From contig CAZAGG010000001.1 of NCBI GenBank assembly GCA_964484565.1, positions 107,548-171,547 on the forward strand: a stretch of 64,000 nt of DNA, read 5' to 3'. Origin of the DNA: an uncultured Rickettsiales bacterium. Its GTDB lineage: Bacteria > Pseudomonadota > Alphaproteobacteria > Rickettsiales > CAZAGG01. How positions within the stretch are numbered: the stretch's first letter is position 1; every line of letters begins with the position of its first letter. The notes beneath the pieces are model-generated. The model saw nothing but the letters and a program-made list of their open reading frames with translations. It was not told the DNA's origin and searched no databases. A program made the position numbers and the translations under genes. Shown here piece by piece: positions 30,092 to 34,689 of this stretch.

Positions 30092-30113
30092 ATTAAATCT
30101 CTTTCATACTGAC

Positions 30114-30272
30114 TATAGTGTTTCTATTTTTATCTGATAGCGTCGTATTTCATCGGTCTCACCGTGCTCACTTATTATTCATAAGCTCCGCGCGCTTCGC
30201 CTCTAAATACTTGCTCTCAAATAAAACTAGAAACACTATACTCCCGCTCTTGACTCTCGACTCTCGACTCTC
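30114..30272. repeat. MITE-like element: 13-bp perfect terminal inverted repeats around a 101-bp core, plus a 3x GACTCTC tandem tail
   Basis: TATAGTGTTTCTA (30114-30126) and TAGAAACACTATA (30228-30240) are exact inverted repeats. GACTCTC x3 sits at 30252-30272. The core contains CTCTCAAATAAAACTA, whose reverse complement recurs at 49208-49223. Confidence 0.55.
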
Positions 30273-30401
30273 AACCATGAGAAAAAATTATGAAAAAAAT
30301 AAAAAATATGTTATAAAATTGATTAACTTTAAAAAAAATGTAACAAAACTATGCTAAGTTATATATGTTAGGAATATAATTTATTATACCGAAAGAATTT
30401 T

Positions 30402-31661
30402 ATGGCTGATTTGAAAGATATTATTACAGGCATTACACCAGGTGATTATAAACTGGATGACGGCACACACGCTCGCGTTCTTAAGCTCCAAATTGGCAAT
30501 GAAAAGAAATATCTTCAGGTTACAGCTAGTGGTAAAAACCATGAATATGAAATACTAGATTCGTTTGATGATATTAAACTTGTCACTGACAAAGCAGTTG
30601 AAGATTTTATCAAATTGCAAAAGAATAAAAGTAATTCTAGTTATAATAGCCTTTTTGGTTTATTAGAAGATTTAACGGATTTTAAAGCCTTACAAGATTA
30701 CGCAGACTTAGTTGCTTTGAAACTAGGAAGTGCAGCAACCAAGGAACAAGATAAAGATGCGGCAGATAAAAATTGCAGAATATACCAAGTAGATAATGGT
30801 GTAGTTGCAAACTACTACTTTGCCACAGGGGATAAAGATAATTTTGAAACAAGATTTTTCCTTATAGGCGCAGATGGAAGTCTTGAAAAAAAAGATGTAG
30901 CAGATGTGCCAGTAAATGATATGACAGACGTTACTATACCAATGATGTATGCATTTGACACTTCTAGTCCTGCTGTTGCGGCTATCAAATTTCTCAAACA
31001 AGCAACCTTAGGCAAAGATGGTGTTAATGCTTATGTTAATGCGTACAATTTACATAGAAATCTTAATAATATTGTTGGTGATGATGGCAAGAAGTTAAAC
31101 CTAGCAGCGCATGTAAATCATAACCACTATGGTGAGGGCGTAGGTGAACGGATTCAGGGGCTCATAAAGAATGGCGTGAATGTTGACTTTGAAAGTCTAC
31201 CTCCATTTTTTGAGAGAGCATATAAGGCGGCTGGCGGCAGAGGTGGAAACTTATTTAATCAGGTTATAGAATCTTCAGGTGAAATATTTCAGGTTTTAGA
31301 TAAGAATCCAATCGGAAAATATGGCTCTAGCTTTGTAGTTGGATCTCCTGTCATCGCAATGACTGGAATTGGCGGCATTATAGAACAGCTAACTGGTGGA
31401 AATAAGTTAATATCCACTTTCGTTCACGCTGGTTTATCTATTCTTGCTGGTAACTTTATAAAAGGCGTAGGAATGGATCTGTTTGCTGCAGCCTTTGCAG
31501 ACCCTGAAAAGGTAAGGGATGCAAAAGATAATGGACGCAATGCACGCGATGCATTAGGTGCTAATGGAGACAAAGATAAAACAAAAGTAGATGGAGGAGG
31601 ATATACAAAAATGAATGGTGTTCCTCAGCAACCATTTAAAGCACTAGAGTTTTCTCTTTAA
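30402..31661 (+). CDS. Hypothetical 419-aa protein with a C-terminal glycine-rich hydrophobic helical hairpin (candidate membrane-active toxin/effector)
   Basis: I recognise no family and see no signal peptide. Residues about 308-366 (SSFVVGSPVIAMTGIGGIIEQLTGGNKLISTFVHAGLSILAGNFIKGVGMDLFAAAFA; nt 31323-31499) form two Gly/Ala-rich hydrophobic segments. Confidence 0.6.
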   Translation: MADLKDIITGITPGDYKLDDGTHARVLKLQIGNEKKYLQVTASGKNHEYEILDSFDDIKLVTDKAVEDFIKLQKNKSNSSYNSLFGLLEDLTDFKALQDYADLVALKLGSAATKEQDKDAADKNCRIYQVDNGVVANYYFATGDKDNFETRFFLIGADGSLEKKDVADVPVNDMTDVTIPMMYAFDTSSPAVAAIKFLKQATLGKDGVNAYVNAYNLHRNLNNIVGDDGKKLNLAAHVNHNHYGEGVGERIQGLIKNGVNVDFESLPPFFERAYKAAGGRGGNLFNQVIESSGEIFQVLDKNPIGKYGSSFVVGSPVIAMTGIGGIIEQLTGGNKLISTFVHAGLSILAGNFIKGVGMDLFAAAFADPEKVRDAKDNGRNARDALGANGDKDKTKVDGGGYTKMNGVPQQPFKALEFSL

Positions 31662-31692
31662 TAGGAAGAATTTTTTAACAGGGACGTAGAAT

Positions 31693-31992
31693 ATGGCAAA
31701 AGAAACAAATACAGCACCGTTGGTTCCACTCGTTGGAAGACATCAGCCTATGTATGTTGTAAAGCCATTTAGGGTAATTGCTGGTGCGGCTCTTGCGTTT
31801 CTCGGGTGGGGGGCATCTTCCCTTGGTCACGATCAAGAAGACGCCAAAGATATAGGGGGTGGTGTAGATGGTGCAAATCGTTTTTTTGGCACACTCACCA
31901 AATGGCTAGGAATTGGCTCATTAGTGGCAGGTGTTGGTCTCGCTGCCAGTGCACTATTCGTTCAGCCAACTAAAGATGGCCCGAGCCTTTAG
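31693..31992 (+). CDS. Small two-TM membrane protein (candidate cognate immunity protein)
   Basis: 99 aa. Hydrophobic helices FRVIAGAALAFLGWGASSL and WLGIGSLVAGVGLAASALFV. AGGGA-like RBS, 31 bp after the upstream stop. Confidence 0.55.
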   Translation: MAKETNTAPLVPLVGRHQPMYVVKPFRVIAGAALAFLGWGASSLGHDQEDAKDIGGGVDGANRFFGTLTKWLGIGSLVAGVGLAASALFVQPTKDGPSL

Positions 31993-32096
31993 AGATCGCT
32001 TCAAATCACCCTCTCCTTCCAACAAATATGACTTTTGTACGTTGCAAATAATTAAATTTGACCTGCTATTTCTTTAACGCAATATATACTGTTTTA

Positions 32097-32600: not shown

Positions 32601-32836
32601 CACTCATAACCTTTATCTATCCTAGCTTACACACTCAAATTAAATCAAAAGCTCAAATTTCTGTACAACTTGAATGATGTAACAAAAACTTCATTAAATA
32701 TTAATTGATTTTTACGTATATCAACTTTAATATTAAGAATGTTAGTATAGCACTGATAGGTTTATGATGAATAAAATGAAGATATAACTATCTTTTGAGT
32801 GCTAAATGAAAGAATGTATAGCGAACTAGGATTAAT

Positions 32837-33631
32837 ATGCATCAAGATAAAAATGAAATATTTGTAACTTTTTTACTAAAAAAATTAGATGATTTGCTAA
32901 AACAAAATAGAGTTAACTATAATGATTTTGATATAATTTCACAAACTAGATTGTCTTCCTGTGTGTTGTCGTATTATGAAAGATCTCAAGAATTAAAATA
33001 TGATAAACAATTCATAGCTATTCTCAGCTATGATTTTTGCTTAGAAAATCAAGAAGTTTTTGAAATATTATTAAATGCACTTCTTGCGGTTCCTAACATT
33101 GATAGACAAAAAGCACAAGAGAATGCAAAAGAAATAATTAATGCCTTATTTGAGGAAGCCGAAAGAATTAGAATATCTCAAGAATCTTCAAGAGTATTAG
33201 GGATAACTTCTGCCGCTGTTCTTTGCGATATTGTTTATAAATTTTTAGAAGACAAAGAAATTTTCAGTTCCACTCAATATCTCAGTGATGGTGACTTTGA
33301 ACCAGAAATAGAAGAGAAGCTCTCTCGTCAGTTTGAAAGAGCATCTAAATTCATTAGATGTTTAATGAATTTAGATTTATCCATCAAGCTTGGAAATGAA
33401 GCATATGATAGAATAGCAGCAAAAACTGGCAGCGGCCTTATTTCTAGAACAATGATCCCACATCAAATAGAGAGAAGTTTTAATGAATTAATATTAAACT
33501 CAAGTGCATATAAATATCAACTCTCACTTACCACAACAGAATTGTTGACTGAATTGAATGAGGTTCTCTATTCAAATGGCTTTGAGGTGATCCCAATTAA
33601 CTCATTCCCAAAACTACAACAAAGGATTTAA
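32837..33631 (+). CDS. Hypothetical helical protein (264 aa)
   Basis: Uninterrupted 264-codon ORF in very AT-rich DNA with an AGGA RBS 5-8 nt upstream. No recognised family, TM helix or signal peptide. Confidence 0.55.
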   Translation: MHQDKNEIFVTFLLKKLDDLLKQNRVNYNDFDIISQTRLSSCVLSYYERSQELKYDKQFIAILSYDFCLENQEVFEILLNALLAVPNIDRQKAQENAKEIINALFEEAERIRISQESSRVLGITSAAVLCDIVYKFLEDKEIFSSTQYLSDGDFEPEIEEKLSRQFERASKFIRCLMNLDLSIKLGNEAYDRIAAKTGSGLISRTMIPHQIERSFNELILNSSAYKYQLSLTTTELLTELNEVLYSNGFEVIPINSFPKLQQRI

Positions 33632-33634
33632 TTT

Positions 33635-34627
33635 ATGAGTTTCACTAATTTGATTAAAAAGAAAAGACTTGGTAATTATAGATTTGATGAATTTAATGGA
33701 TTACCCTCAGAAGATGGAATTCCAACATACCTCGGCGGCGGTCATAGCTTTATGGCTACTCAAACAACTGAGATTAATCATGATATAGAATCTAAATTTA
33801 AATCAATACTTGATAAGTACAAAGTAGATAGTAACCCAGATATAAAGACTAATATTACTAAATTTTACGAACAAATGCTTAAAGCATTTGCAGAGCATGG
33901 AGCTAGTCAAGATGACACCGAAAGGTACGGTAGTGTTTTAGATGAACTAAGAAGAGATGATTATAAACCAAGTGATCTGATGCTTAAAACACTAACTAAT
34001 TTGTTTTCTACAATTCAACTTGGTTTAATTGATTATAAAGAATTTCCACTGGAACTACGGTCTGCTATAAGAGAAAGGAATAGCGCTCATATAGATGCTT
34101 GGGTTGAGTTTTACGATGTTATGATGCGGGTTCCTGATATGTCAGTCATACTTCAAGAACTTAATGACGAACTTTTAAAAGCTGGCATCGGTAGCGTTTT
34201 AAATATCCCAACTATAGAAAAAGCAGAGATCGAAGCTGTAAATGTGAATGATGATGAGAAAAAAAAGATTAAAGATGTTGTTGAAAGTGTTCTAAATCAG
34301 CATAATGTTAATATACCTGATTTTTACAAGCCTTCGCCCAGTGTAGTTGACAGTGTGGTGGATAGATTATCAAAAATGAGAAATAAGGATGGTGCTAATA
34401 ATCCTTCAGACAAAAGAAAAGCTGAACGGGAGTATCAAGACTCAGAAGGGCAATTTTATCAATCGTTACAATCGATTTATAGATTTATATATGCCTCAGT
34501 AAATTCAGATTATCAAAAAGCAATTGATGCATTTGATAATATCAAAAATGGTATTAACGAAGCACTTAAAGAGCAAGGACTTCCTGATTTGGGTCTAGGC
34601 GTTAGTCAGCCGAGCATGAGAAGATAG
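33635..34627 (+). CDS. Hypothetical acidic helical protein (330 aa), translationally coupled to the upstream gene
   Basis: It starts 3 nt after the preceding TAA, and an AAGGA RBS lies inside the end of the upstream gene. No recognised family. Confidence 0.55.
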   Translation: MSFTNLIKKKRLGNYRFDEFNGLPSEDGIPTYLGGGHSFMATQTTEINHDIESKFKSILDKYKVDSNPDIKTNITKFYEQMLKAFAEHGASQDDTERYGSVLDELRRDDYKPSDLMLKTLTNLFSTIQLGLIDYKEFPLELRSAIRERNSAHIDAWVEFYDVMMRVPDMSVILQELNDELLKAGIGSVLNIPTIEKAEIEAVNVNDDEKKKIKDVVESVLNQHNVNIPDFYKPSPSVVDSVVDRLSKMRNKDGANNPSDKRKAEREYQDSEGQFYQSLQSIYRFIYASVNSDYQKAIDAFDNIKNGINEALKEQGLPDLGLGVSQPSMRR

Positions 34628-34647
34628 AAACTTCTAGATCTACAACC

Positions 34648-34689
34648 AAAGAAGTGGCTTATAACTCAAGCCACTTCTTTTTGTTTTTT
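34648..34689 (+). terminator. Rho-independent terminator of the orphan gene cluster, overlapping the last codons of convergent murC
   Basis: AAAGAAGTGGCTT-ATAACTC-AAGCCACTTCTTT (13-bp stem) followed by TTGTTTTTT. The right arm encodes the murC C-terminus on the other strand. Confidence 0.6.

Follow-up and report, generated by a model that had tools for sequence, protein, structure and literature searches.

Five consecutive ORFan genes between an NDUFS4-like gene and murC in an uncultured Rickettsiales bacterium

We analysed a stretch of 64,000 nt (hereafter the window) from an uncultured Rickettsiales bacterium (GTDB lineage Bacteria; Pseudomonadota; Alphaproteobacteria; Rickettsiales; CAZAGG01), which corresponds to positions 107,548 to 171,547 of the forward strand of contig CAZAGG010000001.1 in GenBank assembly GCA_964484565.1. 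As listed in Table 1, the gene for an NDUFS4-like accessory protein of complex I and the gene murC are separated by an islet of five open reading frames (ORFs), P1 to P5, which fills 30402-34627 and is encoded entirely on the plus strand. An initial annotation, made from the letters of the sequence, had described this islet as five consecutive same-strand ORFs of no recognisable family, wedged between two core genes. The lengths and coordinates of the five ORFs were found again in the present analysis, and an independent gene caller, run on the same DNA in the Logan assembly of run SRR12997673, returned the identical five genes, with P3 as a protein of 167 aa. The position between the two core genes was borne out by the family matches of both flanks (Table 1). 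Upstream of the NDUFS4-like gene lie nuoA, nuoB and nuoC in divergent orientation.

Within the islet, P1 and P2 are 31 nt apart and P4 and P5 only 3 nt, while P3 stands alone, and P1-P2, P3 and P4-P5 probably form three expression units. P5 lies in the frame of P4, the junction reading TAA TTT ATG (33629-33637). This junction could represent tight translational coupling of two genes, or else one gene of 596 codons cut by a single nonsense mutation.

Table 1. Genes and structural features of the islet and its borders (coordinates are those of the window).
Feature	Coordinates	Strand	Evidence or description
NDUFS4-like complex I accessory gene (102 aa), left flank	29783-30091	+	Pfam PF04800 NDUS4, 1.3e-29
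Imperfect palindrome, 133 bp	30111-30243		Arms 30111-30141 and 30213-30243, 31 nt, 87% complementary
Tandem repeat, 3 x GACTCTC	30253-30273	+	Visible in sequence
P1, 419 aa orphan	30402-31661	+	ORF
P2, 99 aa orphan	31693-31992	+	ORF
P3, 167 aa from ATG 32097 (180 aa from TTG 32058)	32097-32600	+	ORF
P4, 264 aa orphan	32837-33631	+	ORF
P5, 330 aa orphan	33635-34627	+	ORF
Hairpin, perfect 13-bp stem, 7-nt loop, then T-run	34648-34680		Repeat and terminator scans
murC (489 aa), right flank	34666-36135	-	Pfam Mur_ligase, Mur_ligase_M, Mur_ligase_C

The long ORFs of the islet are not products of chance, as the initial annotation had argued. Stop-free runs of 429, 331, 269 and 182 codons occur in the islet, while the longest run in shuffles that preserved dinucleotide content (n = 500) averaged 98.5 codons and had a maximum of 165. 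The run of P2, with 100 codons, is by itself within chance length, and P2 was accepted as a gene because of its frame-specific codon scores, its two hydrophobic segments and a GC content above that of every other ORF. A codon model trained on the remaining long ORFs gave in-frame log-odds of +0.345 (P1), +0.238 (P2), +0.115 (P3), +0.232 (P4) and +0.249 (P5) bits per codon, compared with 0.280 +/- 0.090 for the host genes under the same model. All five alternative frames were negative for each of P1 to P5; the score of P3 is low, yet the frame that gave it is the only positive frame of P3. The content of guanine plus cytosine (GC) at the first, second and third codon positions decreases in the order GC1 > GC2 > GC3, the pattern found in host genes, and every ORF begins at a start codon of its own, preceded by purine-rich sequence. 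All five are real coding genes, P3 being the least certain.

The same evidence bears on the idea that the islet is decaying DNA, in which P4 and P5, for instance, would be remnants of a larger gene that is now split. P4 and P5 do share one frame and are parted by a single stop and one codon, P3 has a low coding score, and pseudogene-like pieces of a methyl-accepting chemotaxis protein (MCP) occur elsewhere in the window (19616-20668). Against this stand the intact frames, far longer than chance allows, the start and upstream purine-rich stretch that each ORF possesses, and the lack of any frameshifted continuation or homologue that would define a parent gene. We regard decay as very improbable. 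The pieces at 19616-20668 consist of a 92-aa ORF with a partial MCP signalling domain and, after it, a 245-aa ORF whose dCache match is below threshold. Their domain order is the reverse of that in a normal chemoreceptor, and they resemble pieces of a chemoreceptor gene that has been broken or rearranged.

None of the five proteins matched Pfam, NCBIfam, PHROGs or PADLOC at or near the curated cut-offs, and the best PHROG match of any of them had an E value of 0.007. Sequence searches of the PDB with all five proteins and with the C-terminal half of P1 gave no match; with phmmer, P1 retrieved from the PDB only noise from MnSOD (E 0.2-1). In a word-index search of 5.8 billion protein clusters, P1, P4 and P5 each found only themselves, and an exhaustive HMMER scan of 1.84 billion cluster representatives with P1 likewise returned P1 only. 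P2 is a singleton cluster, and at 90% identity the same is true of MurC, of the NDUFS4-like protein and of every islet protein whose cluster was checked. A tblastn search with concatenated P1-P5 gave no match in 72,556 plasmids and 50,697 phage genomes, nor did a scan of the viral contigs of IMG/VR for P1, P3 and P5. No paralogue of any of the five proteins is encoded in the islet or elsewhere in the window. The statement that the islet matches no recognisable family thus held in every collection that was searched.

Pfam matches were obtained for 47 of 52 other ORFs of the window that were scanned, which gives a no-match background of about 10%, and because of this background five orphans in a row are not expected by chance. 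The islet is a genuine orphan cluster. Further ORFs without a Pfam match at E <= 0.001 were seen at 2126-3019 (297 aa), 22065-23156 (363 aa), 53033-53380 (115 aa) and 56420-57355 (311 aa). These four are scattered over the window, and the one at 22065-23156 adjoins the flgE, flgD and fliK genes.

Nominally, P5 gave the best matches, to the PADLOC models of Cas12d (16.7 bits, E 3.6e-4) and LmuA (14.8 bits, E 3e-3) and to Pfam SecA_SW (15.5 bits, with a cut-off of 26.7). These three coincide on a single helical stretch and were judged to be composition noise. P1, P2, P3 and P4 had no PADLOC match at all. The two PADLOC matches, the islet-like layout with low GC content between core genes and the toxin-antitoxin pairs present elsewhere in the window are what could be cited for an uncharacterised anti-phage defence system. 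However, both matches are low-scoring and lie on a stretch that also weakly resembles SecA_SW, and no nuclease, ATPase, NTPase, TIR, SIR2 or other enzymatic domain was found in P1-P5 with Pfam and NCBIfam. Defence systems are, moreover, typically transferred widely, whereas the islet has no relatives in other genomes. To a defence function we assign only the slightest probability.

To place the islet among related genomes, we compared 160 murC loci, 80 from genomes and 80 from metagenome contigs. The closest MurC proteins that were found were 59% identical among GTDB representatives and 61% identical in JGI metagenomes; these scans use shared 8-residue patterns, which relatives of about 70% identity can escape. 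An islet homologue was encoded in none of the 160 loci. Adjacency of murC to NDUFS4/nuo genes or to CDF/17-kDa/fabI/atp genes was also found in none of them (0/160). The usual cell-wall and division arrangement, with an lpxC homologue about 6.5-8.7 kb downstream of murC, occurs in 58 of the 160 loci, while in the window lpxC is located at 51184-52179. The earlier remark that murC is detached from its usual neighbours is therefore correct. Gene order appears to be generally scrambled in this lineage, and the surroundings of murC do not seem to be conserved at 59-61% identity. The orphan status of the five genes is partly a sampling effect, because the host belongs to an isolated lineage without a sequenced close relative.

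The left border of the islet was initially described as a repeat resembling a miniature inverted-repeat transposable element (MITE). The inverted repeat and the three copies of GACTCTC are present; the assignment to MITEs was not substantiated, as the palindrome is single-copy within the 64-kb window. Its core, TATAGTGTTTCTA, is perfect over 13-14 nt, and its RNA fold of -47.4 kcal/mol (z = -7.45) was matched in stability by none of 200 shuffles. The palindrome could equally well be a structure at a transcript end or in a 5' leader. Like elements of the MITE, repetitive extragenic palindrome (REP) and Rickettsia palindromic element type, it is an intergenic sequence (133 bp) whose ends are inverted repeats and which folds as a single long hairpin. 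Unlike these, it has one copy in 64 kb, no clear target-site duplication and no Rfam family, and it lies wholly within the spacer between the NDUFS4-like gene and P1. An Rfam scan of the region gave nothing credible, and the palindrome arm was not found in viral contigs.

One candidate for a second copy was considered. The segment 44461-44479 (CCTAGAAACACTATAATCC) agrees with the right palindrome arm at 17 of 19 positions, 14 of them contiguous (44464-44477), with a BLAST E value of 0.06, and lies in the spacer before an RNase D-like gene (44488-45624). It was rejected as a copy, since it comprises one arm only and has no fold (z = -0.22); the possible readings are a solo arm, a shared protein-binding site and a chance match. 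In the Logan assembly, one contig ends at 30143 and another starts at 30213, just inside the arms, so that the 69-bp centre of the palindrome is missing. The break could result from a genomic repeat or from a drop in coverage at a strong hairpin. We attach little weight to it, because both contigs also end within ordinary genes.

At the right border, the hairpin terminator that had been reported to reach into the end of murC was found again. It overlaps the last codons of murC, including the stop (34666-34668), and is most simply read from its sequence as a terminator common to the convergent genes P5 and murC, which would be an ordinary arrangement. The internal spacers, which had been described as even more AT-rich than the surrounding genome, have the usual composition of spacers here. 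The GC content is 0.317 at 31993-32096, 0.258 at 32601-32836 and 0.303 in the spacer at 30092-30401. All three values fall short of the genome average, yet they are normal for spacer DNA here, the 26 other spacers of the window having a mean of 0.309 with a standard deviation of 0.074.

The initial annotation went on to propose that the islet is a horizontally acquired module, such as a toxin/immunity or effector cassette. On this view the palindrome would be the scar of a mobile element and the right hairpin the distal border. In windowed GC analysis, the islet has the lowest value of all 4.6-kb windows, 0.342, while the others have 0.387 +/- 0.012 with a minimum of 0.360 (z about -3.8). P3-P5 together have a GC content of 0.315 (P3 0.32, P4 0.30 and P5 0.34), and P2, with 0.49, has the highest of any ORF of the window. 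The base composition of the islet thus deviates from that of its surroundings. The codon usage, checked together with GC, is host-like, and the in-frame log-odds given above lie in the span of the host genes. Synonymous-codon z scores, conditioned on amino acids, were +0.78 (P1), -0.99 (P2), -0.06 (P3), +2.76 (P4) and +0.83 (P5), compared with -0.09 +/- 1.33 for the other genes, and none of the five deviates in the negative direction. The dinucleotide signature gave a delta* of 49.8 for the islet and 44.1 +/- 12.6 elsewhere; a deviation of that size or larger was seen in 32 of 100 other windows. GC3 in the islet is 0.21-0.25 versus about 0.30, and GC1 and GC2 are low. As the synonymous codons are host-like, the GC deficit of the islet was attributed mainly to amino-acid composition, with the slightly lower GC3 as a further contribution.

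Besides the low GC content, transfer is favoured by the succession of five orphans against a background of about 10%, by the site between unrelated core genes, which is conserved in no relative compared, by the left-edge palindrome with its perfect termini of 13-14 nt, and by the architecture of P1 and P2, which is compatible with a membrane toxin and a small membrane immunity protein. In the literature, ORFan clusters are often ascribed to integrative elements (PMC2718499). The other expected marks of transfer are missing. Pfam and NCBIfam revealed no integrase or transposase in P1-P5, the repeat scan found no direct repeats resembling att sites at the borders of the islet, and no tRNA gene adjoins it, the only tRNA of the window being located at 7829-7900. 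The tyrosine recombinase gene closest to the islet (54408-55340; Xer-type domain pair) is 20 kb away. The searches of plasmids, phages, viral contigs and other collections point to neither a donor nor a second recipient, the palindrome is single-copy in the window, and no toxin, immunity or defence profile was matched. There is no positive evidence of horizontal acquisition of the islet. It could be an old, ameliorated import, or one from a donor of similar composition; overall, however, we consider acquisition by transfer unlikely.

Two other loci of the window are of note in this context. The region 55341-56338, after the recombinase gene 54408-55340, contains an ORF of 169 aa that carries a BrnA antitoxin domain (3.1e-14) and is separated from that gene by a 488-bp spacer. 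This ORF has the most atypical codon usage of the window (synonymous z = -3.76, log-odds -0.027), and on both measures it appears more foreign than the islet does. A MNT/HepT toxin-antitoxin pair at 41714-42369 (Pfam NTP_transf_2 1.5e-12, HepT-like 3.2e-22; GC 0.33-0.36) is located within the ATP synthase row, between the ORFs 40867-41745 and 42390-43901. This pair, more clearly than the islet, is a candidate for an inserted accessory module.

The base composition of P3-P5 also raises the question of whether these genes in particular arose de novo, or nearly so, from the AT-rich non-coding DNA of the lineage. The origin of bacterial ORFans is presented as unsettled in the literature, with de novo birth as one of three origins discussed (PMC12315717). 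Intergenic GC in the window averages 0.309-0.324 and P3-P5 stand at that level (0.315 against 0.31-0.32), and P4 and P5 have no homologue at any depth of search. On the other side, frames of 264 and 330 codons at 31% GC are extremely improbable without long selection, the shuffles never having exceeded 165 codons, and the frame-specific codon signal is as strong as that of host genes. Known bacterial de novo gene candidates are much shorter. De novo birth is accordingly given a very small probability, and the GC content of P3-P5 is as expected of weakly constrained, fast-evolving resident genes under AT-biased mutation.

The five proteins were further characterised by their composition and by structure prediction. 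P1 has no signal peptide and no Cys residue and carries a net charge of -9. An AlphaFold2 (AF2) single-sequence model of P1, with a predicted local distance difference test (pLDDT) score of 34.9, has mixed strands and helices up to residue 165 and is helical at 190-385. Two Gly-rich, moderately hydrophobic segments lie at 308-330 (hydropathy KD19 1.62) and 335-366 (1.29-1.38), and a charged tail follows. P2 has hydrophobic segments at 19-46 (KD19 1.44) and 65-93 (2.06) with an acidic loop between them. P3, P4 and P5 are acidic, soluble proteins with net charges of -3, -10 and -11, and P4 was predicted to be all-helical (AF2 without alignment, pLDDT 38.4). The structural check that had been suggested, with AlphaFold and Foldseek, was run on P1 and P4 and was of no help: Foldseek against the PDB gave nothing at E <= 0.001 for either model, and these results were discarded in view of the low confidence of the models.

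The islet is best read as five lineage-restricted ORFan genes that have been resident long enough to acquire the codon dialect of the host, and their lack of detectable relatives is best explained by genes that evolve too fast or are too lineage-restricted. With moderate confidence, we take the islet to be a resident, fast-evolving accessory module that acts at or beyond the membrane. The pair P1/P2 is the sole functional handle; its layout resembles that of toxin/immunity pairs and of hairpin-anchored membrane proteins. We tentatively suggest a joint action of P1 and P2 at the membrane. P1 may consist of a large soluble part and a C-terminal Gly-rich helical hairpin that would anchor or insert in the bilayer, although our confidence in this step, as in the joint action of the two proteins, is low. 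P2 would be a small two-pass membrane protein, predicted to have both termini inside (N-in/C-in) and the acidic loop outside, which may either partner or counteract P1. P3 and the putatively coupled pair P4/P5 would be acidic soluble helical proteins, most plausibly exported or accessory factors, and might serve the same niche-specific function as P1/P2, an interaction with other cells or with a host.

Several points weigh against the view of a resident, membrane-acting module. The islet has the lowest GC content of the window, and the association of ORFan clusters with integrative elements, like the case of an ameliorated import or a donor of similar composition, would speak for transfer instead. 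The large protein collections were searched with P1, P4 and P5 only. The hydrophobic segments of P1 are marginal as transmembrane helices, contain E, K and N, and could instead form the buried core of a protein. The models of P1 and P4 are below usable confidence, and the functional readings rest on composition and gene order.

More specific functions are less probable. The initial proposal of a toxin/immunity cassette fits only P1 and P2, through generic features, and no toxin, immunity or defence family was detected in the islet. The reading of P1 as a membrane-damaging toxin with P2 as its immunity protein appears rather unlikely. We are similarly doubtful of a wider version, in which P1/P2 represent a new family of membrane-inserting toxin and two-pass immunity protein, P3-P5 are new secreted or adaptor proteins belonging to that system, and the module is unique to a deep, almost unsampled lineage or contains some genes born de novo.

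Secretion genes were also noted outside the islet. An RTX calcium-binding repeat protein is encoded at 18375-19463 (HemolysinCabind 3.8e-41, six stretches) and is preceded by a 379-aa ORF without a Pfam match (17122-18261), and a TolC-type outer-membrane efflux protein is encoded at 5559-6896. The RTX protein and the TolC-type protein suggest, from their sequence, that type I secretion may exist in the organism.

The islet is a clean instance of a known phenomenon, the ORFan cluster, in a lineage of which few members have been sampled, and not an identified toxin, effector or defence cassette. If functional, its genes represent five protein families without a known relative, with at least one possible membrane-acting pair, and are candidates for new folds or for factors of cell-cell interaction. 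The main value of the case is methodological: low GC content together with an absence of matches does not establish horizontal transfer.

Membrane-depolarising toxin/immunity systems include colicins of the A/E1/Ia type and the pairs Tse4/Tsi4, Ssp6/Sip6 and VasX/TsiV2. P1 would resemble colicins and the effectors of the type VI secretion system (T6SS) in having no Sec signal and, by prediction, a helical C-terminal region of about 200 aa with a putative Gly-rich hydrophobic hairpin near its end, and P2 would resemble their immunity proteins as a putative small multi-pass membrane protein encoded directly after P1. The differences are that P2 is encoded on the strand of P1 and contains no more than two hydrophobic segments, and that the segments of P1 are marginally hydrophobic. 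No Pfam match at E <= 1 linked P1-P5 to the Colicin pore-forming domain (PF01024) or to glycine-zipper families, P2 matched no immunity family in Pfam, NCBIfam or PADLOC, and no T6SS, lysis or translocation genes are present in the window.

Inc-type effectors of chlamydiae offer another comparison. With its two close hydrophobic helices (308-330 and 335-366) in an otherwise hydrophilic protein, P1 is similar to these effectors. In Inc proteins, the bilobed domain is usually located close to the N-terminus, and the proteins depend on type III secretion. In contrast, the window holds only flagellar genes among secretion systems of this kind. It gives no other sign of an obligate intracellular life of the organism, and contains full core metabolism genes, a GGDEF protein and remnants of chemotaxis genes.

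The closest counterparts of the islet are known ORFan clusters (PMC3514957, PMC2718499, PMC12315717). ORFans are described there as shorter and AT-richer than conserved genes (PMC3514957). Unlike these clusters, the islet has no hallmark of an integrative element nearby, and it encodes long proteins (167-419 aa) with host-like codons. As in the known clusters, its genes have no homologues, their GC content is lower and they are located between conserved genes, and transfer, rapid divergence and de novo birth are the origins to be considered for both.

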